64,000 nucleotides of DNA from an uncultured Chromatiaceae bacterium (GCA_945787555.1 CALZJG010000026.1:230-64229); one strand, 5' to 3'; counted from the stretch's first letter, positions 2,219-59,876 are shown. Notes: generated by a model not told the origin, from the letters alone. A program made the numbers and translations.

Positions 2219-3679
2219 ATGAGTCGAGTCGAGGTCATCAAGCGCGTCGCATTGGTCGCGGGCCCGCTATTGGGTGTGCTGCTGCCGCTGGTCTTGAAGA
2301 TTCCCGAACATCCGCAAGCGTCGGCGATGTTGGGCATCGCCGTATGGATGGCGTTATGGTGGTTGACCGAGTGCGTGCCCTTGGCGGTGACAGCCTTGTT
2401 GCCCTTGCTGGGCTTGCCGCTCGCCGGCATCGCCAGCGCGCAAGAGACCGCGCCGCGTTACATGACCAGCGTCATGTTTCTGTTCGTGGGCGGTTTCCTC
2501 ATCGCCCAGGCCATGGAGTCTACCGGCCTGCATAAACGCATCGCCTTGGTCATACTCTCGCATATGCACGCCAGTCCGTGGCGTATCATGTTGGGTTTTG
2601 CGTTGACCACGGCGTTCTTGTCGATGTGGATTTCCAATACCGCCACCACCATGTTGATGGTGACCATCGCTGTGGCGGTGCTAGCGCGGCTGGACGCGCA
2701 ATTGGAGGCCACGGATGTGGCGATGTTAGCCGCGCCCTTGTTGTTGACCATCGCCTATGCAGCCAATATCGGCGGCATGGGAACGCCAGTGGGCACCGTG
2801 CCTAATCTCGTGTTTCTGGAAAACATCCAAGCGCATGCCCCCGAGCTGCGGCCCACTTTCATGCAATGGATGTTGGTGGGCGTGCCGTTGGTGGTTCTTG
2901 GCTTATTAGTTGTGCTGTTCTTTCTTGGTCGCAAAGTGCGTGGCATGGCCTGGTCCGGCGCCTTGGCGGAAGAGAGTTTGCATAACGAATTGCGCGGGCT
3001 CGGGGCGATGCGTCGCGAGGAGCGTTGGGTGGCCTGGGTGTTGGGTATAACGGCCTTGGCGTGGATGACGCGCGAGGGTATCCAGGGTGATGATTTCTCT
3101 TTGCCGGGCTGGTCGGCGTTGTTGCCCTATAAAGGCATCGATGACGGCACTGTGGCCATGGCCGCCGCGCTGGCGTTGTTTTTGGTGCCCGCGCAAGAGG
3201 GCCGGCCGGTATTGGGACATGGCGCCTTCACTCGTTTGCCGTGGGAAATACTAATATTACTAGGGGGAGGATTCGCATTGGCGATGGGTATGCAGCAATC
3301 CGGACTTTCCAAATGGATGGGCGATGGCTTGGCGGTCTTGGCGGCGGTGCCATGGCCCCTAATGTTGCTAGGCATTGCATTCGCGATTACCTTCTTGACT
3401 GAGATCACCAGCAATACCGCGACCACGCAAGTGATGTTGCCCATCCTCGCCGCCGTGGCTTTGGGTATGGAGCAAGACATGACAGCTTTGCTGTTGGTGG
3501 CGACGCTGGCCGCCTCGTGCGCTTTCATGCTGCCGGTGGCCACGCCGCCCAACGCGATAATCTTTGGTACCAATCGCATCACCATGCGCGACATGATGCG
3601 CGCCGGGATAAGGCTGAATCTGACGATGCCCTTAGTGATCGTGGCGATGGTGATATTAATTCGACCCCTGTGGCCGTAA
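2219..3679 (+). CDS. SLC13/DASS-family anion:Na+ symporter (sulfate/di- or tricarboxylate type)
   Basis: 486-aa polytopic protein with the two characteristic SNTATT repeats (WISNTATTMLMV and ITSNTATTQVMLPI) of the divalent anion:sodium symporter family. Confidence 0.8.
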   Translation: MSRVEVIKRVALVAGPLLGVLLPLVLKIPEHPQASAMLGIAVWMALWWLTECVPLAVTALLPLLGLPLAGIASAQETAPRYMTSVMFLFVGGFLIAQAMESTGLHKRIALVILSHMHASPWRIMLGFALTTAFLSMWISNTATTMLMVTIAVAVLARLDAQLEATDVAMLAAPLLLTIAYAANIGGMGTPVGTVPNLVFLENIQAHAPELRPTFMQWMLVGVPLVVLGLLVVLFFLGRKVRGMAWSGALAEESLHNELRGLGAMRREERWVAWVLGITALAWMTREGIQGDDFSLPGWSALLPYKGIDDGTVAMAAALALFLVPAQEGRPVLGHGAFTRLPWEILILLGGGFALAMGMQQSGLSKWMGDGLAVLAAVPWPLMLLGIAFAITFLTEITSNTATTQVMLPILAAVALGMEQDMTALLLVATLAASCAFMLPVATPPNAIIFGTNRITMRDMMRAGIRLNLTMPLVIVAMVILIRPLWP

Positions 3680-11272: not shown

Positions 11273-11925
11273 TGCGACTAGAATCGATAGATCAGAGACA
11301 AGAGCATCTCTAAGGATCCACTGACGCCGCGCTGGTGGCGTTGGAAACGAGCTCAAAATATTTATGTAATTGATGTAAACTGTGCTTATTAGCTCGTTGC
11401 CGCCTTGCCATCATCTGTTTGATTGAATTGTTAGAGGCGCCCACAAGGCGATCATTCCGCCGCGGTTCAATTCGCCGTCGATCCGGTCGGTGAAATCGCC
11501 GATCTCTCCGGAGCGCCACTAGCTCACGTCGAGGGAAATACGGCGGAAGGGGTAGCCCAGGCTGAGGCCCCATAGAGATCCACGCGCTCGTGCTCGCAGA
11601 GAAGAGCGATGTTCTGCGCGGCCGGCAGGCTGCCGTGGGACTAGGGCGCCCGCGCTTTGAACGCCGAGCCGGTGAGGAGTTGCGCAGACGGGTCATCCGC
11701 CTGGCGGTGGTATATAACTCAGTACCAGCGACAGTCTGACCGCCTGCCCGGATAGCGCGCCGGTAGGGAGCATGAAGTCGGTCTCCCATGGAATGTGGGG
11801 GGTCGGTACCGGGGGCGGCCCGCACCAGTCTGGCGTGCGCTCCATGTGGGCGGCCATGGATGTGCGCGTTGATTATTGGGCCGTGTTGGGGGTATACAGC
11901 GCGGTTTTTCATCGGAAGTGCAGTC

Positions 11926-12546
11926 ATGATTAAGTTGCGAACCTATATCTTCATCGATTCGCTGCAACCGCAGCTGGCCGAATATCTGGGCACGGTCTCC
12001 CAGGGTTTTCTGCCTATCCCCGGAGATGCCTGTTTATGGCTGGAAGTAGCGCCGGGCATGGCGGTGCATCGGTTGACCGATGCGGCCCTCAAAGCCACTC
12101 GGGTGCGTCTGGTACAACAAGTCGTCGAGCGTGCCTTCGGTTCGATGTTGATCCATCATCGCGATCAGAGTGATGTCCTCGAAGCCGGCCATATCGTCCT
12201 CAATCATCTCAAAACCAGCGAGGATGCGCGGCAGAAGTGCCGTATTGCTTGGGCTGAAATCATCCGTTCCATCACTCCCGACCATGCCGTCGTGATCAAC
12301 CGCCAAGACCGCCGCGGTTCCATGATTCTGCCTGGGCAAAGCATGTTCATCCTCGAAAGCGAGCCCGCCGGTTACATCGTCTACGCGGCCAACGAGGCGG
12401 AAAAAGCCGCCAACATCACCCTCGTCGACGTCAAGGCCGTCGGTGCTTTCGGCCGTCTCACCCTGGCCGGGAAGGAAGCCGACATCGATGCCGCCGCGCA
12501 TGCCGCCATCGACGCACTGCATGGTCTGTCGGGTATAGAGAGCTGA
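11926..12546 (+). CDS. Tandem BMC-domain (bacterial microcompartment shell-like) protein, orphan
   Basis: 206 aa from ATG 11926. Both halves match the BMC/PF00936 pattern. Second half: [57 protein letters not shown] versus PduA-type [48 protein letters not shown]. First half: [36 protein letters not shown]. No other microcompartment gene in the window. Confidence 0.5.
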
Positions 12547-22333: not shown

Positions 22334-23020
22334 TTAACGCGCGAAGAAGTGGAGTCTGGTCTCGGTGGCGATGCCGTCCAAGGGTATGTCCCAAGGTTGG
22401 GTGGTGAGCGTCGAAACGTGCTGGCACTCATGTGCATAGCCCAGCAAGCGCGGTTTGCGCCAATGGCGACGATGCCACAGAAACGCCAGCGTGCGATCAT
22501 AATAGCCGCCCCCCATGCCCAACCGATTGCCGTGATCATCGAAAGCCACCAGCGGCACTAGCATTAGATCCAAGCTTCGGGCGCTGATTGCACGCAGGCC
22601 GGCGTAGTCCGGCTCCGGTATGCCGTAGCGATTGGGGCTCAGGGCGTCGCCATGGTGATAGGGGACAAATCCCAAACGTCCATTTCGAGTGATGATGGGT
22701 AAATAGCAGCGTTTGCCCAGCGCCCAAGCGCGCGTGAGTAACGGCCAGGGATCCAGTTCGCCATCGTTGCTGAGATAGAAAGCGATGTGTTGGCTACGAC
22801 GGAACAGGGTATTGGCCGTCACTAAACGCGCGGCACAACGGGCGGCATCGACTTGTTGGTGCTGGTCGAGGCTGCGACGCCGGTCGCGCATCCAGCGGCG
22901 GATGTCGGCGCGTGAGGCGTCGGGCGGGGGATTAAAAGGGGTCGACGCAGACGAGGGCTGGTGTTGGCCGGGGGGCTGTGGCTTCATCCGTTCTGTGCTT
23001 CGCATAGATGGAAAGTGCAT
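22334..23020 (-). CDS. 5-formyltetrahydrofolate cyclo-ligase
   Basis: LVPLVAFDDHGNRLGMGGGYYDRTL and GYAHECQHV match E. coli YgfA. The start is uncertain (ATG at 23020, 23005 or 22987). Confidence 0.8.
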   Translation of the reverse strand: MHFPSMRSTERMKPQPPGQHQPSSASTPFNPPPDASRADIRRWMRDRRRSLDQHQQVDAARCAARLVTANTLFRRSQHIAFYLSNDGELDPWPLLTRAWALGKRCYLPIITRNGRLGFVPYHHGDALSPNRYGIPEPDYAGLRAISARSLDLMLVPLVAFDDHGNRLGMGGGYYDRTLAFLWHRRHWRKPRLLGYAHECQHVSTLTTQPWDIPLDGIATETRLHFFAR

Positions 23021-23024
23021 CCTC

Positions 23025-23212
23025 CACGAGAACCGTCGCCAACCTTCGCCCTTGAACCATCAGGTTCAGGTGGGGAAGCGTGCGGCGCCTCAGGCTTTCC
23101 GCTCGGTGGCGGACATGCACACCGGCGTCGTCGAAGCGTCCCCGTAGCGAAAGTATTAGGGTCAAGGAGAATGATGGTTCGCTGACGAGAGCCGCAGAGG
23201 ATGCGAGAAGAT
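23025..23212 (-). ncRNA. ssrS: 6S RNA (ssrS)
   Basis: About 190 nt between zapA and the cyclo-ligase, the conserved ssrS position. The minus-strand read contains ...UCGACGACGCCGGUGUGCAUG... and ...ACCUGAACCUGAUGGUUCAAGGG..., resembling E. coli 6S ...GCGACGACACAUUCACCUUGAACCAAGGGUUCAAGGG. Ends are approximate. Confidence 0.6.
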
Positions 23213-31251: not shown

Positions 31252-31324
31252 TGCTGTGATAGGGTTGCGCCGCGCTTGGTTTCCCCACTGCAGCCCGGTA
31301 TAGTGTGCCACTCAACCACTCCAC

Positions 31325-31510
31325 TGCGGGAGAGACCCCGTCCGTCTTGAATGATCCGACTGCGGATGCAAGATAGACGCGGGCGCCGAAGGCGCAACCA
31401 GCCCGGAATCGCTCAGGCAAAAGGACCGTAGTGGCAAGGTGACTCTGGAGAGAGGCCGTGACCCGGCCCACCGAAGGGGCACAAGCTCTCAGGTACCCGG
31501 ACAGAGGGGC
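31325..31510 (+). ncRNA. Glycine riboswitch (tandem aptamers) in the gcvT leader
   Basis: Aptamer 1 has GGGAGAG...GCGGGCGCCGAAGGCGCAA...CTCAGGCAAAAGGAC. Aptamer 2 has CTCTGGAGAG...CCCACCGAAGGGGCA...CTCTCAGG...ACAGAGG. Both match the glycine-riboswitch consensus. Confidence 0.8.
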
Positions 31511-54199: not shown

Positions 54200-55075
54200 C
54201 TAGGCGCCGGTGATCAGGCGCTTCTGCTCCATCATGTCGTGAATGATGGGGGTAAGCATGATCTCCATGGCAAAACCCATCTTGCCGCCCGGCACCACGA
54301 TGGTGTTGGGGCGCGACATCCATGAGCCCTCGATCATTTGCAAGTAATACGGGAAGTCATGCTTCTTCGGGTAGCGGAAGCGGATCACGATGAAGCTTTC
54401 ATCCGGCGTGGGTATGTCACGGGCGATAAAAGGGTTGGAGGTGTCGACACTGGACACACGCTGGAAGTTGATGTCGGTGCGCGAGAACTGCGGCGTAACG
54501 TATTTCACGTAATCGGGCATGCGGCGCAGGATGGTCTCCACGATGGCCTCGGCCGAGTAGCCCCGCTCCTTGTTGTCGCGATGAATTTTCTGTATCCACT
54601 CCAGATTGACGATGGGCACCACGCCGATCAGTAGGTCCACCCACTGGGCCACGTCCGCGCCCTCGGACACGACACCGCCGTGCAGGCCTTCGTAGAACAG
54701 CAGGTCCGAGGCCGGAATGGGCGCCCAGTCCGTGAACGTGCCGGGCTGTGAACCGTGCAGAACCGCTTCCTCGCTGTTGTGCACGTAGTAACGGCGTTGG
54801 CCGCCGCCGGTCTCGCCGTAGGCGCGGAACAATTCTTCCAATTTCTCGAACAGATTGGCCTCGGCGCCGAAGTGACTGATCGTTTTGCCATCATTCTTTG
54901 CGGCCTCGACCACTTTCTTCATCTCGGCGCGGTCGAATTTGTGAAAACTGTCGCCCTCTACAATGGCAGGTTTGATGCCTTCGCGCCGGAAAATATGCTC
55001 GAAAGCATTCTTCACCGTGGTGGTGCCTGCGCCCGATGAGCCGGTTACAGCGATTATGGGATGTTTGTTGGACAT
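54200..55075 (-). CDS. prk: Phosphoribulokinase (bacterial-type, Calvin cycle)
   Basis: IIAVTGSSGAGTTTV P-loop and overall strong similarity to bacterial CbbP/PrkB. 291 aa. Confidence 0.9.
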   Translation of the reverse strand: MSNKHPIIAVTGSSGAGTTTVKNAFEHIFRREGIKPAIVEGDSFHKFDRAEMKKVVEAAKNDGKTISHFGAEANLFEKLEELFRAYGETGGGQRRYYVHNSEEAVLHGSQPGTFTDWAPIPASDLLFYEGLHGGVVSEGADVAQWVDLLIGVVPIVNLEWIQKIHRDNKERGYSAEAIVETILRRMPDYVKYVTPQFSRTDINFQRVSSVDTSNPFIARDIPTPDESFIVIRFRYPKKHDFPYYLQMIEGSWMSRPNTIVVPGGKMGFAMEIMLTPIIHDMMEQKRLITGA

Positions 55076-55359
55076 GATTGAATCCTCTCCAGGTCTTGAA
55101 AAATCCGTTGTGTTGCCGCGTATATTGAGGTTGGCCGGAATACCCGGTGGTTGTGGCGCTGAGAATAACCGCGGCGCCCGCGCGCATTATGTTCCGCGGC
55201 GCGGGCTGAGCCGGCGGTTGGGCGAAAGCGGGAGATTATACGCGAGTCGCTAAGGTTGCAAGCAAGCCGCACGCCGCGCGAACTTGTGCCCGGCTGCTAA
55301 CAGTGCGAATATCATACTATTTTCACCGCCGCTGGGCGGTTACGCGGAGGAGGGGGCCC

Positions 55360-55962
55360 ATGCTGGCCAAAACGCCAATTCTGTGCAAAGCGATTGTTTT
55401 TATTGGGGTGTTAAGCCTGCTGGGCTGCTCCCTACCCGGCACGCGCGTGGATACCGACCATCATCTGGTCAGCCGCGCGGGGGAAGCTTCCTTTGCGGTG
55501 GTTTATTTTTTGCGCCCCGAGCCGGAGCGCACCATGGGCTTTTCCGATAATGTGCTGGCGGTGTCGTTGGACGACCGTCCCTTGCTCACCATAGATAAAG
55601 GTGATTACGCATTGGTGTATATGCGGCCTCGGGTACGCGCGACCTTGACGCTGGAAAACCTCACCGAGGTGGGGCCGACTCATGGTTTTCAGGCTCGAGT
55701 GGAGAACGAAACGGCGCTGTGGCCGCGCCGCGGCGACTGGCCCACCAAGACCATGAGCAAGCATTTCGAGTATGGCTTTACCGCGGGTGAGGTCTATTAC
55801 ATTGTGCTGGAGCCGGTCAATGGCGAGCATCGCGGCGTGTTCTTTAAGCCGCACTTGGTCGACGAGTTCGACGCCAAACAACTGGCCGCGCAATTGCGCC
55901 CGGTTGGTGAGGCGAAAAAAGCGCCTTTAGTGCCGCGTTCCGGTTTTTTGGGCTTGTTCTAG
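55360..55962 (+). CDS. Putative lipoprotein (unknown function)
   Basis: ATG 55360 with GGAGGAGGGGG RBS. Lipobox LLGC-S. 200 aa. Confidence 0.5.
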   Translation: MLAKTPILCKAIVFIGVLSLLGCSLPGTRVDTDHHLVSRAGEASFAVVYFLRPEPERTMGFSDNVLAVSLDDRPLLTIDKGDYALVYMRPRVRATLTLENLTEVGPTHGFQARVENETALWPRRGDWPTKTMSKHFEYGFTAGEVYYIVLEPVNGEHRGVFFKPHLVDEFDAKQLAAQLRPVGEAKKAPLVPRSGFLGLF

Positions 55963-56001
55963 TCGGACGGTCGGCCGCGCTCGTCACGGTTCGACAGGGC
56001 G

Positions 56002-56238
56002 TTAATCCGTGCGTTGGACTTTGAGGGTGGCGCCGTTACTCAGAGTCTCGATGGCGACCACTGAATAACCTTGGCGCCCGAGTCGGGTGGCCAGCCAGTG
56101 AGCGTCATCTTGACTGCGCAGGCGCAAGGCCAGCAGCGCCGCTCTTGGCAAGCGGCTCAAGGCCAACAGGGCCAGTACGTAACCGGCGATGTGGCGGGTT
56201 TCGGTAAGATCCAGCAGTGTTTGGGACGCGTCCAACAT
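56002..56238 (-). CDS. TusA-like fold protein lacking the catalytic cysteine
   Basis: 78 aa. LDLTETRHIAGYVLALLALSRL...SVVAIETLSNGATLKVQR resembles TusA but has no CPxP cysteine. Lies directly downstream of the sulfite reductase gene. Confidence 0.45.
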   Translation of the reverse strand: MLDASQTLLDLTETRHIAGYVLALLALSRLPRAALLALRLRSQDDAHWLATRLGRQGYSVVAIETLSNGATLKVQRTD

Positions 56239-56269
56239 GGCTCACCTCTTGAAATTTCCCCGTTGTTTG

Positions 56270-58579
56270 TCAGCCCGCCGAGGCCTCAGCGGCGGCCTTG
56301 CGCACTTTGATACGCGTGGCCGTGCCTTGTTCCTCGATGCTCAGCACTTGGTGTCCGTCACTTTGCAGGCTGGAAGTCACTTGCTGCGAGGGGTCGCCCG
56401 AGACGAACAGGAAATCCACCTCCGTGCCGGGTTGCAAGCTGCGCAGCGTATTGCGCGCCTTGATGTAATGCAGCGGACAGCCATAGCCGGTGAGATCGAT
56501 GATAGACGCGCTCGTCTGCGCCAGCGCCGGGCGTTTGATTTGCGGCAATGAGGCGGTCAGGTCGAGTTGCTTATCGATGCCCTGGCAGGTGGCAGCGGCG
56601 TCCAGCATCCACGCGTCCATGCGCTCGGACAACGCCTTGAGCTTTAGATCTTCGAAGTTGGCTTGCTGCTCGGCCAGCTCCGTAATGAACTGTTGCAGAC
56701 GTCCGCCCAAGTCGCTGCTGGGCAGGGTCTCGCTCAGGTCGCTGGCAATGTCCGCCAAGGTTTGGCCGGCCTGACGGCCGGCAAGGAATTGCACCGACTG
56801 GCCGATCGCACGCAGCATTTGTTCGGCGCACTCGATGGCGTTTTCCGGGTCACGTTGCAAGCGGAAGGCGTCGCGATAGTTGCGCTCGTGGGCGGCCTCG
56901 GCGAAGTTGGCAGACACCAGGCTCTGCGCCGCGCCGGCGCATTCGCCGCCGCCCAATTGCAGCACTTTGAATTGCTCGGCTTCGCCGTGGTCGCGCCCCA
57001 CTTCAGCGAGCTGCTCGGGCGTGATGCCCTTCAGATCGGCGACGACCGAGGCGATGTGCTCGATGCCCCGTCGGCGGGTCCAATGGAAGAAGCTTTCATC
57101 GTCCTGGTGGTCCTGGCCATACGCCTCGCTCACGCGGCTGACGGCTTGCTCGATGCGCGCCGCCGGGATGGAGGGGCCTTTGAGGGCGATGGCGCCGTCG
57201 CCACGACCGTCACCGCCGAAATACATCTGATAATGCGGCACCAGCTTGCCGTGTAAGCGTTTGCCTTCACCGTAGATGCCGATATCGCCGGTCTCGGGCT
57301 GGGCGCAGCCGTTCTGACACCCGCTGGCGCGGATGCGCAAATCCTGCGGGCCGCCGGAGAGTTTCAGGCCGACGATCTTGGATGAGGTGATGCCGAGGCG
57401 GCAGGTGGACGTGCCGGGGCAGGCCACCACGTTGTCGCCGACCTTGGGCTCGCCCAGATCGAGGGCGGCCAGGGCGGCGCGGATGCGCGGAAAGCTATCC
57501 TCGCGCACGCCCACCAACGCCAGTTTTTGATCCTGCGTGGCGCGCACGTCGTCCAGTCCTTCGCTCTGCATCAGTTGGGCGATGCCGCGTAGCTGCGGCG
57601 CGGTAATGTCGCCGATGGGCAGGCTGATGGGGAAGACGTGCAGTCCCGGCTGTTTTTGCTCGATCACGCGGCGCGGCGCGCCGGGGAAGGGAGTAGCGCC
57701 GTCGCGCTGGCCGGCTTGCCACTCGCCCTTGGGGTTATCGTAATCGGCGTAGGCCACCTTGGTGCGCGCCAGCTCCTCGCGATATTTAGCGATGAATTCC
57801 TCGGCGCCGAATTTGTCGACCAGCCATTTGATGCGGGCGCGGGCGCGCCGTTTGCGGTCGGAGTACTTGTTGTGCAAGGTCAGGATCGCTTCCATGGAGG
57901 CGAGCAAGTCTTGCTCCTCGATAAATTCCTCGACGGTGATGGCATGATGGGGCTTGTGGCCCAGGCCGCCGCCCGCCAGTACCTTGAAGCCGAAGCGGCC
58001 ATCCTTGTTGACGGCGACTACGCCCAGGTCATGCATCAATCCTTGGGCGCAATCGGTTTCGCAGCCGGAGAAGCTGATCTTGAACTTACGCGGCATTTGC
58101 TGGGTCAGGGGGTAGCGTAAGAAGCGCTTCACGGCGCCTTCCAAATGCGTGTTGATGTCGACATGCTCGCGCGGGCACACGCCGGCTAGCGGGCAGGCGC
58201 TGACGTTGCGCACGGTGTTGTTGCACGCTTCGCGGGTGGTGAGGCCGGCCTCGCCCAGTTTGCGCATCACCGTGGCGGTGTCCTTGATCGGGATATAGTG
58301 GATTTGGAAGTCCTGGCGCGTGGTGACATGAGCCACGTCGTGCTGGGCGTAAGTCTCTAAGCAATCGGCGATAACGGCGAGTTGCTCGGGATTCATGATG
58401 CCGCCCGGCAGTTTGATGCGTACCATATGCACGCCATCTTGGCGCTGGCCGTAGATGCCATGCTGGAGGCGGAACGACATGAAGCGCTCGCCGTCCATAT
58501 CACCGTTCAAGAAAGCGTGTACCGCTTCTTCGTAACGGTTGATCTCTTCCACGTCCACCAGATTCTTGATCACACTCAT
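56270..58579 (-). CDS. Siroheme-[4Fe-4S] sulfite/nitrite reductase (NirA/Sir type) fused to C-terminal TusA-like domain
   Basis: Two nitrite/sulfite-reductase ferredoxin-like halves with siroheme-cluster cysteines (ACPGTSTC...SGCQNGC). Then an about 140-aa linker domain and a C-terminal TusA motif (IDLTGYGCPLHYIKARNTLRSLQPGTEV). ATG 58579. Confidence 0.8.
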   Translation of the reverse strand: MSVIKNLVDVEEINRYEEAVHAFLNGDMDGERFMSFRLQHGIYGQRQDGVHMVRIKLPGGIMNPEQLAVIADCLETYAQHDVAHVTTRQDFQIHYIPIKDTATVMRKLGEAGLTTREACNNTVRNVSACPLAGVCPREHVDINTHLEGAVKRFLRYPLTQQMPRKFKISFSGCETDCAQGLMHDLGVVAVNKDGRFGFKVLAGGGLGHKPHHAITVEEFIEEQDLLASMEAILTLHNKYSDRKRRARARIKWLVDKFGAEEFIAKYREELARTKVAYADYDNPKGEWQAGQRDGATPFPGAPRRVIEQKQPGLHVFPISLPIGDITAPQLRGIAQLMQSEGLDDVRATQDQKLALVGVREDSFPRIRAALAALDLGEPKVGDNVVACPGTSTCRLGITSSKIVGLKLSGGPQDLRIRASGCQNGCAQPETGDIGIYGEGKRLHGKLVPHYQMYFGGDGRGDGAIALKGPSIPAARIEQAVSRVSEAYGQDHQDDESFFHWTRRRGIEHIASVVADLKGITPEQLAEVGRDHGEAEQFKVLQLGGGECAGAAQSLVSANFAEAAHERNYRDAFRLQRDPENAIECAEQMLRAIGQSVQFLAGRQAGQTLADIASDLSETLPSSDLGGRLQQFITELAEQQANFEDLKLKALSERMDAWMLDAAATCQGIDKQLDLTASLPQIKRPALAQTSASIIDLTGYGCPLHYIKARNTLRSLQPGTEVDFLFVSGDPSQQVTSSLQSDGHQVLSIEEQGTATRIKVRKAAAEASAG

Positions 58580-58823
58580 CCTCGCCTCTCTCGCGCCGGC
58601 GCTGCGCCGACGATCTATCAAAATTTAGATGCTCCGATAACCTGAGCGTCGTTACGTGCGCCGCAACTGCCTGGCGCCATGCCCCACCCGAAAAACCCAA
58701 GGCGCCATATTTTACATGACCGCGGGCATGACCGCGCAATACTCAGTCCGCCACCGAAATGTATCGATCACGGCCCCGGGGGACGCTGCAGCAGCGCTAC
58801 GAGGTCGCGAAGGACGGGCTGTT

Positions 58824-58862
58824 CGTTCGAGCGAACGGCCGGGAGAGTCTCACCGGCCGTTC
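58824..58862. promoter_or_regulatory. Overlapping palindromes in the sir/cysB divergent intergenic region
   Basis: CGTTCGAGCGAACG (14-bp palindrome) overlaps GAACGGCCGG-gagagtctca-CCGGCCGTTC (perfect 10-bp arms). The position fits an operator or attenuator-like structure. Confidence 0.4.
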
Positions 58863-58955
58863 CTTTGCTCATGACAGGCTGGCTAGCGTAGCAAGGCTGG
58901 CATATCATGAAAAATAATATAATCTTCTATTGGTATGGGCGGCAGAGTATAAGCG

Positions 58956-59876
58956 TTGAAATTACAGCAACTGCGTTACGTGCGCGAAGTGGTGCGCGCC
59001 GGTTTCAACGTCTCGGCAGCGGCCGAGGCGCTGCACACGGCCCAGCCGGGGGTCAGCAACCAGGTTCAGCTCCTGGAGCAGGAGCTCAAGGTGCAGATCT
59101 TCGAGCGTAAGGGTAAGCGATTGACTGGGTTGACGAAACCCGGCGAGGCCATCGTTGCCCTGGCGGAGCGGGTGCTGCGCGAGGTGGAGAATATCAAGCA
59201 GGTGGGAGCGGAGTTCTCCAACGAAACCACCGGCACCTTGTCCGTTGCCACTACCCATACCCAAGCCCGTTATGCCTTGCCGCCGGTGATCAAATCGTTC
59301 ACGGAGCGCTTTCCCGACGTGCGTCTGGAGTTGCACCAAGGCAATCCCACCCAGGTGTGCGAAATGGTTTTGGCGGGCGTGGCCGACATCGGTATCGCCA
59401 CTGAGGCCATCGAGTTGTTCGGCGAGTTGATAATGCTGGCCTGTTATCAGTGGAATCGCTGCCTGGTGGCGCCGCCCGACCATCCGATACTCAAAGAGGA
59501 TCCGCTCACCCTGGAGGCCATCGCCAACTATCCGGTGGTGACCTATGACTTCGCGTTTGCCGGGCGCTCCAAGATCAATAAGGCGTTCGAAGCGCGGGGC
59601 TTGAAGCCCAACGTGGTGTTGACCGCTATCGACTCGGACGTGATCAAGACTTATGTGGAATTGGGTCTAGGGATAGGGATTTTGGCCAGCATGGCCTTTG
59701 ATCCGGCGCGCGACACCCGTTTGCGCGTCATGGATGCCTCCCATTTGTTCGAGGCCAGCACCACCCGCATCGGCATCCGGCGCAGCGCCTATCTGCGCGG
59801 CTATGTCTTCGCCTTCATTGAGCTGTTCGCGCCGCATCTGACGCGCGAGGTGGTTATGGAGGCGCTGAGCCACTAG
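58956..59876 (+). CDS. cysB: LysR-family transcriptional regulator CysB
   Basis: LKLQQLRYVREVV...SVATTHTQARYALP...IDSDVIKTYVELGLGIGILASMA is collinear with E. coli CysB. TTG start. Confidence 0.85.
   Translation: MKLQQLRYVREVVRAGFNVSAAAEALHTAQPGVSNQVQLLEQELKVQIFERKGKRLTGLTKPGEAIVALAERVLREVENIKQVGAEFSNETTGTLSVATTHTQARYALPPVIKSFTERFPDVRLELHQGNPTQVCEMVLAGVADIGIATEAIELFGELIMLACYQWNRCLVAPPDHPILKEDPLTLEAIANYPVVTYDFAFAGRSKINKAFEARGLKPNVVLTAIDSDVIKTYVELGLGIGILASMAFDPARDTRLRVMDASHLFEASTTRIGIRRSAYLRGYVFAFIELFAPHLTREVVMEALSH

Follow-up and report, generated by a model that had tools for sequence, protein, structure and literature searches.

What does it mean for a bacterium to carry a siroheme reductase for sulfite or nitrite joined, in a single polypeptide, to the sulfur-carrier domain TusA? 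The question is raised by positions 56,002 to 58,862 of a 64,000-nucleotide stretch of DNA from an uncultured Chromatiaceae bacterium (GCA_945787555.1 CALZJG010000026.1:230-64229; this whole stretch is called the window below), where the gene for such a fusion (sir-TusA) is followed by a small gene for a second TusA-like protein and faces away from cysB. We find that the fusion protein belongs to a separate NirA/Sir subfamily with a conserved, cysteine-bearing extension between reductase and TusA. Our best explanation, which we hold to be somewhat better than an even bet, is that it is an assimilatory sulfite reductase whose extension and TusA domain would act as a cysteine relay for sulfur. 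The coding features, numbered along the window, are as follows.

56270 to 58579, minus strand: sir-TusA coding sequence, 769 amino acids plus stop, with an ATG start at 58579.

57068 to 58579, minus strand: siroheme-[4Fe-4S] reductase core, amino acids 1–504, delimited by Pfam, Foldseek and PDB sequence matches and by invariant columns.

58049 to 58225: codons of the N-terminal-half cysteines C119, C129, C135, C173 and C177.

56504 to 57067, minus strand: C-terminal extension, amino acids 505–692, specific to the subfamily, a helical bundle plus a loop.

56924 to 56992, minus strand: most conserved stretch of the extension, amino acids 530–552 (DHGEAEQFKVLQLGGGECAGAAQ), which holds the invariant Cys547.

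56270 to 56503, minus strand: TusA domain, amino acids 693–769, with the codon of Cys701 at 56477–56479, in GYGCPLHYIKAR.

56002 to 56238, minus strand: cysteine-less TusA-like paralog, 78 amino acids, with His16 at the TusA cysteine position.

In a mechanical list of open reading frames (ORFs), the sir-TusA frame runs over 56270–58621 on the minus strand, with its upstream end at a TTG at 58621. The ATG at 58579 is favored by the NCBI gene call of 769 amino acids and by the N-termini of homologs (MSxIKNLV). The core was matched by the Pfam families NIR_SIR (160 bits; gathering threshold 27) and NIR_SIR_ferr (105.1 bits; gathering threshold 24), each in two stretches, and its [4Fe-4S] cluster motif, CX5C...CX3C (C387, C393, C421 and C425), is invariant across 94 homologs. 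In Foldseek searches, the best structural match to the core was Mycobacterium tuberculosis NirA (1zj8; expectation value (E) 1e-32, target template-modeling (TM) score 0.76). Plant nitrite and sulfite reductases rank after it (E 1e-25 to 1e-28), as does E. coli SiRHP, and the resemblance to Dsr structures is weak (E 1e-5 to 1e-7). Among PDB sequences, tobacco nitrite reductases match best (E 1e-46). The core is a monomeric ferredoxin-type NirA/Sir siroheme-[4Fe-4S] reductase. The original prediction, made from the DNA sequence alone, had named this core correctly but made it too long, at about 560 amino acids where it has about 505.

None of the NCBIfam whole-protein models was near its cut-off (ferredoxin-nitrite reductase, the best NCBIfam match, 225.6 bits vs. 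594; NirA family protein, 211.2 vs. 523; CysI, 172.8 vs. 457; ferredoxin-dependent Sir, 110.6 vs. 731.5), and we therefore treat the enzyme as a member of a separate NirA/Sir subfamily. M. tuberculosis NirA/SirA (1ZJ8) and the plant ferredoxin-dependent reductases (5H8V, 3B0G) have in common with it the monomeric, two-fold NIR_SIR_ferr/NIR_SIR architecture, the CX5C...CX3C motif in the second half and an assimilatory role. However, identity to them is only ~23–25%, and the Sir-TusA protein adds an N-terminal-half cysteine motif, the cysteine-bearing helical extension of 185 amino acids and TusA, none of which is found in the solved NirA and plant enzymes. The first of these additions is a second complete motif, C129-x5-C135 ... 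C173-x3-C177, at the pseudo-symmetric position. The subfamily conserves this motif, tobacco nitrite reductase does not have it at the aligned positions, and it may form a second [4Fe-4S] or siroheme site.

The leading NCBIfam and PDB sequence matches would favor a different assignment, namely that the enzyme is a ferredoxin-nitrite reductase to which an unrelated TusA domain has been appended. We consider this very unlikely. The NCBIfam score lies far below the curated cut-off, the top structural match is M. tuberculosis NirA, which is reportedly a sulfite reductase, and the conserved neighbors of the gene are cysB, cysH and tauE rather than nitrate or nitrite genes.

The C-terminal domain is a TusA domain by both sequence and structure. 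Pfam TusA (PF01206) scored 41.9 bits against the whole protein and 46.9 bits against the domain alone (E 2.5e-12). Both scores pass the gathering threshold of 28.6 bits, and so the domain does not fail at the model threshold, the outcome that the original prediction had named as counting against it. In Foldseek, the domain matched YhhP as well as E. coli TusA (3lvj_C; target TM 0.82). Cys701 lies in the motif GCPLHYxKAR, in which D, C, P, H, Y, K, A and R are invariant among 11 diverse fused domains, and it sits at the start of helix 1, the position of the reactive TusA cysteine. Thus, the fusion of Sir/NirA to a TusA domain that keeps its CP-x-H cysteine holds as first proposed. The free proteins TusA, YeeD (TsuB) and YedF (PF01206; 3LVJ, 8K1R) share this fold and the cysteine at the N-terminus of helix 1, but here the domain is the C-terminal part of a reductase and carries CPLH(Y)xKAR in place of CPxP. 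In YeeD, the TusA-family cysteine holds both persulfide and -S-SO3 adducts (PMC11073785).

Between core and TusA, the original prediction saw an uncharacterized linker of about 140 amino acids. This stretch is instead a domain of ~185 amino acids (505–692) that ranks with the best-conserved regions of the protein and also occurs without TusA. Its loop DHG..FKVLQLGGGEC547AG is essentially invariant in homologs, the cysteines C547 and C584 are invariant, and C665 is conserved in at least 90%. No Pfam family matched the extension at a threshold as loose as E ≤ 10, and it has no solved relative by sequence, a profile search of PDB sequences having returned only designed helical bundles and TusA proteins. 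A phmmer search with the extension against 1.84 billion representative proteins gave 60 matches, mostly short fragments. In every near-full-length match (680–780 amino acids), the extension occupies residues ~505–680 behind an N-terminus of Sir size, and no clear stand-alone extension or other fusion partner was seen among these matches. The extension is thus a conserved cysteine-bearing helical domain particular to this subfamily.

In the AlphaFold model of the protein (overall predicted local distance difference test (pLDDT) 82.8), the helices of the extension at 547–668 are predicted at pLDDT 81–92, and the invariant loop at 532–550 is the sole long stretch with pLDDT below 50. We tentatively read the loop as a mobile arm. 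We also considered an iron-sulfur site built from C547, C584 and C665. The model tends to disfavor it, since the order of the helices should put C584 far from C547 and C665 and the loop is of low confidence; on this ground, we lean toward a mobile thiol arm.

All three Pfam domains were present in about 100 of the best 120 database matches, and about 70 of the 80 best-scoring species-level loci encode TusA. The names given by the sources are generic ('nitrite/sulfite reductase', 'sulfurtransferase TusA family protein' or a Joint Genome Institute (JGI) double label). Thus, the Sir-TusA architecture is common in metagenomes and covered by no curated NCBIfam model. The original prediction had left room for a standard family that is already well annotated. 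However, no NCBIfam equivalog was reached, and full-text literature searches turned up no paper on a Sir-TusA fusion. Its members come only from uncultured autotrophic Gamma- and Betaproteobacteria and from ammonia oxidizers. By the names of the records, the host lineages of the TusA-bearing forms include Chromatiales, Thiotrichaceae and Thiobacillus.

The substrate was read from the genes around sir. Scanning one genome per species gave 293 loci that encode a relative of the extension, whether or not TusA is present, and 81 loci were examined. cysB stands beside sir in 63 of the 81, cysH directly downstream of sir in 59, and a gene for a TauE-family permease directly upstream in 47. The typical operon of the relatives is cysB / tauE-sir-TusA-(small ORF)-cysH, with cysH encoding adenosine 5'-phosphosulfate (APS) reductase, and precomputed Pfam assignments in the closest relatives (80% identity) likewise read TauE-Sir-TusA-PAPS_reduct. 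The cysH product of one of the relatives (L004) has CC and CxxC pairs and an ECGLH tail, which we take to mark it as an APS reductase. The cysB of the window, predicted at the outset as a divergent neighbor, passed the cut-offs of both the CysB equivalog (459.5 bits; cut-off 436) and the CysB family (516 bits; cut-off 402) in NCBIfam. In Nitrosospira and other Nitrosomonadales, an enzyme without TusA (~700 amino acids) is followed by cysH and by two genes of the sizes of cysD and cysN. With cysH, a permease gene and cysB as neighbors, we therefore regard the operon as assimilatory rather than as a dissimilatory or reverse system. Its pathway context, as read from gene order, is sulfate or thiosulfate assimilation, and the enzyme itself is probably an assimilatory sulfite reductase.

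A comparable pairing of genes has reportedly been described in Corynebacterium glutamicum, where fpr2-cysIXHDNYZ is said to combine a ferredoxin-type CysI, cysH and a TauE/DUF81-type permease gene; that cluster is not known to have a TusA fusion or a C-terminal extension, and its regulator is different.

In the window, the operon is reduced to sir-TusA and the small gene. Neither tauE nor cysH, nor any remnant of them, was found in the 64 kb (tblastn, E ≤ 10), and the locus is otherwise syntenic (cysB ... sir ... DUF2846-like, PRK, AhpC), with the flanking genes for a DUF2846-like protein, phosphoribulokinase (PRK) and AhpC common to the window and its closest relatives. Read against L082–L086 and L004, the losses fall at 58580–58876 for tauE and 55963–56001 for cysH. 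The ratio of nonsynonymous to synonymous substitution rates (dN/dS) within the lineage of the window is 0.13–0.42 for the core, the extension and TusA alike. Values well below 1 in every part mean that the sir-TusA gene is not decaying, and pseudogenization of the reduced operon is therefore ruled out. The DUF2846-like gene, for a putative lipoprotein (55303–55962, plus strand; weak Pfam match, 17 bits), is convergent with the sir operon and abutted by the small ORF, and this convergent neighbor is conserved in 14 related loci. The window's only other possibly sulfur-related transporter is a DASS-family Na+/sulfate-type symporter (2219–3679, plus strand; Na_sulph_symp, 210 bits), which might replace the missing TauE.

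Gene context also bears on the suggestion that the organism is a likely sulfur oxidizer and that the enzyme could run in reverse, oxidizing the sulfane sulfur held on TusA to sulfite, in the manner of rDsrAB with DsrC. Many hosts of the family are annotated as Chromatiales or Thiobacillus, and TusA feeds sulfur into rDsr in sulfur oxidizers, according to the summary of Stockdreher et al. in PMC11094781. However, no sulfur-oxidation gene (dsr, sox or soe) was found within the 64-kb window, the core belongs to the assimilatory NirA type, with only the weak resemblance to Dsr structures given above, and the subfamily is also found in ammonia oxidizers. In the relatives, the gene stands in a tauE-sir-cysH operon by cysB, or before cysH-cysD-cysN-sized genes in Nitrosospira. 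Gene context thus disfavors reverse operation, as it does a nitrite substrate, and we regard a reverse or dissimilatory role as extremely unlikely.

The small gene downstream of sir-TusA encodes 78 amino acids and was predicted to be a TusA-like fold that has lost its cysteine. It is called as a gene in the NCBI record. Preceded by a good Shine-Dalgarno sequence (AGAGGTG) and with dN/dS of 0.13–0.37, the ORF is therefore a real gene. The Pfam TusA model did not match the protein, even at E ≤ 10. When profiles were compared with hhalign, the orthologs of the 78-residue protein aligned end to end with the fused TusA domains (96.1%, E 3.2e-9, 71 columns), and local hidden Markov model and jackhmmer runs concurred. 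A structural model, made with database homologs as input, reached pLDDT 89 and has the beta-alpha-beta-alpha-beta-beta topology of TusA. Its top Foldseek matches were YeeD, TusA (3lvj_C) and a SirA-like protein, with E-values of only 3e-3 to 6e-2, and it superposed on 3lvj_C with TM 0.78/0.79 and a root-mean-square deviation of 1.9. These comparisons bear out the predicted fold.

The protein has no cysteine at all, and its His16 aligns with the TusA cysteine. A few divergent members of the family (P0226, P0230 and L008) still have Cys at the His16 position, which fits descent from a TusA domain. The family comprises 53 clusters among 5.8 billion proteins, all hypothetical or unnamed; it is restricted to the closest clade of the window, and the nearest relatives (80% identity) do not have it. 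The 78-residue protein is thus a paralog of the TusA domain in the fusion, devoid of cysteine and under purifying selection. It would have arisen as a duplicate of that domain that lost the cysteine. Without a cysteine it cannot carry sulfur, so it would most likely be a structural or regulatory partner, for example one that occupies the docking surface of TusA, or a competitor there.

The fused TusA domain itself is not kept everywhere. L063–L081 (Nitrosospira, Nitrosovibrio and Nitrosomonadales) and L078 (Acidiferrobacterales) are TusA-less members of the subfamily, 695–704 amino acids long and with the extension. In a neighbor-joining tree, TusA-less members nest beside TusA-bearing Thiobacillus and Hydrogenophilales sequences. 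The tree, which is weakly rooted, suggests that the loss of TusA was secondary.

A second departure from the simple fusion was seen in a sister clade. In seven species-level loci (L058:6543, L059:6543, L062:6545, L065:6545, L066:2183, L068:6545 and L071:6551), the sir frame stops 5–8 codons past a run of nine or ten A (A9–A10) at the junction of extension and TusA. The TusA part follows in the −1 frame, where it has no start codon of its own, and one added A restores the fusion in all seven. Among the retrieved database clusters, 15 of 16 (691–699 amino acids, from four sources) end likewise, whereas P0063 is an in-frame fusion. Six further loci (L019:3764, L022:6562, L025:6553, L026:6562, L056:6531 and L057:6531), listed as in-frame, with the frame assumed for L025, have an A9 or A11 run at the same junction. 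Homopolymer runs of at least nine nucleotides are concentrated there (13 of the 17 in 870 kb of loci). The run-bearing sequences mostly cluster in the neighbor-joining tree, with L056 and L057 elsewhere, and the sir-TusA gene of the window has no such run. The sequences suggest that the A9–A10 run directs programmed transcriptional slippage or −1 frameshifting, which would yield Sir and Sir-TusA isoforms; the alternative is a recurrent homopolymer error of assembly. That the out-of-frame relatives keep the TusA part immediately behind sir, even in another frame, supports a functional linkage between Sir and TusA.

Taken as a whole, the evidence is best explained, at a little better than even probability, by an assimilatory Sir subfamily in which the cysteines of the extension and of TusA would pass sulfur along within the molecule, as a relay tethered to the reductase. 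The direct channeling of sulfur suggested in the original prediction would likewise be a reasonable reading of the fusion. Such a relay could work in either of two ways. A cysteine-bound S-sulfonate or thiosulfonate, derived from APS reductase or from thiosulfate, might be presented to the siroheme site, or the reduced sulfur might be taken up as a protein persulfide and delivered to acceptors. Under either option, little free sulfite or sulfide would build up.

Fusion of a thiol carrier or redox domain to a catalytic domain has a parallel in plant-type APS reductase, an enzyme of assimilatory sulfate reduction that consists of APS reductase and a fused glutaredoxin-like domain. However, both the enzyme and the fused domain differ from those considered here, and in the Sir-TusA relatives APS reductase is encoded by a separate neighboring gene.

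Several points weigh against this explanation. The relay is read from domain content and gene order, and in it C547, C665 or C701 would have to reach the siroheme pocket. Because the best sequence matches in the PDB and NCBIfam are nitrite reductases, the assignment of sulfite as substrate rests on gene context. In the window and in L009, there is no cysH beside sir, so that the proposed APS-reductase partner is gone from the locus. Finally, the Nitrosomonadales members manage without TusA and the closest relatives without the small ORF; thus, neither TusA nor the small ORF is essential to the enzyme.

Some of the same facts would suit a regulatory switch, in which TusA and the extension cysteines would sense sulfane sulfur or redox state and carry neither substrate nor product. 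Persulfidation or a disulfide would then lower sulfite reduction when reduced sulfur is plentiful, and the paralog would compete for the surface. Some members of the family (Nitrosomonadales) do without TusA, the A9–A10 run of the sister clade looks like a means of tuning TusA dosage, and the cysteine-less paralog is unable to transfer sulfur. The TusA-bearing forms occur in the lineages named above (Chromatiales, Thiotrichaceae and Thiobacillus), which are sulfur oxidizers with high cytoplasmic sulfane sulfur. However, no sensor output is evident, and the invariant Cys and KAR patch suit a carrier equally. We judge a switch to be unlikely, though worth keeping in mind.

The relay of our best explanation can be drawn more boldly as an assimilatory counterpart of DsrAB-DsrC. 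The likeness lies in a siroheme sulfite reductase with a cysteine-bearing partner, and it is one of analogy rather than of family membership. The flexible arm of DsrC reportedly enters the active site and leaves carrying sulfur. By analogy, the Cys547 arm and the tethered TusA cysteine would intercept sulfur at the siroheme, releasing a persulfide or accepting an S-sulfonate. The N-terminal-half cluster would serve as an internal electron path, and slippage or −1 frameshifting at the A9–A10 run would set the share of TusA in the sister clade. However, we found no homology of DsrC to the extension or to TusA, and the core here is of the NirA type in an assimilatory context. This detailed scheme is speculative, and we think it rather unlikely to be right as drawn.

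How the operon is controlled is a separate matter. The original prediction pointed to two overlapping perfect palindromes between sir and cysB as possible operator sites. The features of this region are as follows.

58956 to 59876, plus strand: cysB, LysR-type regulator of sulfur assimilation (NCBIfam), TTG start, divergent from sir.

58877 to 58955, no strand: A+T-rich block adjoining the cysB start, delimited by an 8-locus alignment and blastn.

58580 to 58876, no strand: window-specific DNA from the conserved block to the sir start, the position of tauE in relatives.

58833 to 58862, no strand: 10-bp inverted repeat, GAACGGCCGG-N10-CCGGCCGTTC, with a 10-nucleotide spacer; overlapped by a 6-bp repeat at 58824–58837.

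The first palindrome is real. The perfect 10-nucleotide inverted repeat (58833–58842 and 58853–58862) exceeds chance (P ~0.013 in 2000 Markov simulations) and, as RNA, would form a hairpin of −28.3 kcal/mol (z −3.7). The second, a 6-nucleotide repeat (CGTTCG at 58824–58829 and CGAACG at 58832–58837), is at the level of chance. Both are absent from every related locus in the 8-locus alignment and by blastn. They lie in ~300 nucleotides that are specific to the window, replace tauE and have no similarity to any related locus, and that probably form the 5' leader of sir (58580–58876). A REP-like repeated element was also considered for the 10-nucleotide palindrome and set aside, as it occurs in a single copy in the window. 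No Rfam family or riboswitch was found near sir, either in the intergenic region and operon at E ≤ 1 or in a scan of the whole window, and a promoter and terminator scan gave nothing useful.

The only intergenic part conserved in relatives is the A+T-rich block at 58877–58955 (alignment of 8 loci), of which 58877–58931 is 81–93% identical by blastn to L003–L007, L009 and L011. On this conservation, the block is a better candidate than the palindromes for the CysB sites and the divergent promoters. The sites bound by CysB typically consist of half-sites arrayed in A+T-rich DNA, rather than of perfect palindromes rich in G+C. That the palindromes at 58824–58862 are CysB operators controlling sir and cysB is therefore hard to credit. 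One of them is longer than chance and placed between the two genes, but they are missing from every related locus, where tauE fills the position, the conserved block lies elsewhere, and the 10-bp repeat has a possible alternative role as a stable RNA hairpin in the presumed sir leader. For that repeat, a leader hairpin would be an equally good guess.

Elsewhere, the window encodes a BMC-domain (microcompartment shell) protein (11788–12546, plus strand) and the phosphoribulokinase (54200–55075, minus strand; NCBIfam, 500.7 bits), which together suggest that the host is a CO2-fixing autotroph. The glycine-cleavage genes gcvT and gcvP are preceded by a tandem glycine riboswitch (31317–31506, plus strand; two aptamers, scored at 63.8 and 48.3 bits). 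The mechanical start of the gcvT ORF, at 31439, overlaps the second aptamer, and the real start is therefore further downstream. A 6S RNA gene (23017–23203, minus strand; Rfam, 94.7 bits) adjoins a 5-formyltetrahydrofolate cyclo-ligase gene, the usual arrangement.

Current pipelines give the Sir-TusA family only a generic annotation. In the textbook account of assimilatory sulfite reduction, substrate and product are both toxic free ions, sulfite on the way in and sulfide on the way out. The Sir-TusA fusion offers an experimental handle on whether sulfur is instead passed between assimilation steps on protein cysteines, as in the dissimilatory Dsr and sHdr systems, and the cysteine-less paralog and the poly-A junction of the sister clade may add two further, testable layers of regulation.

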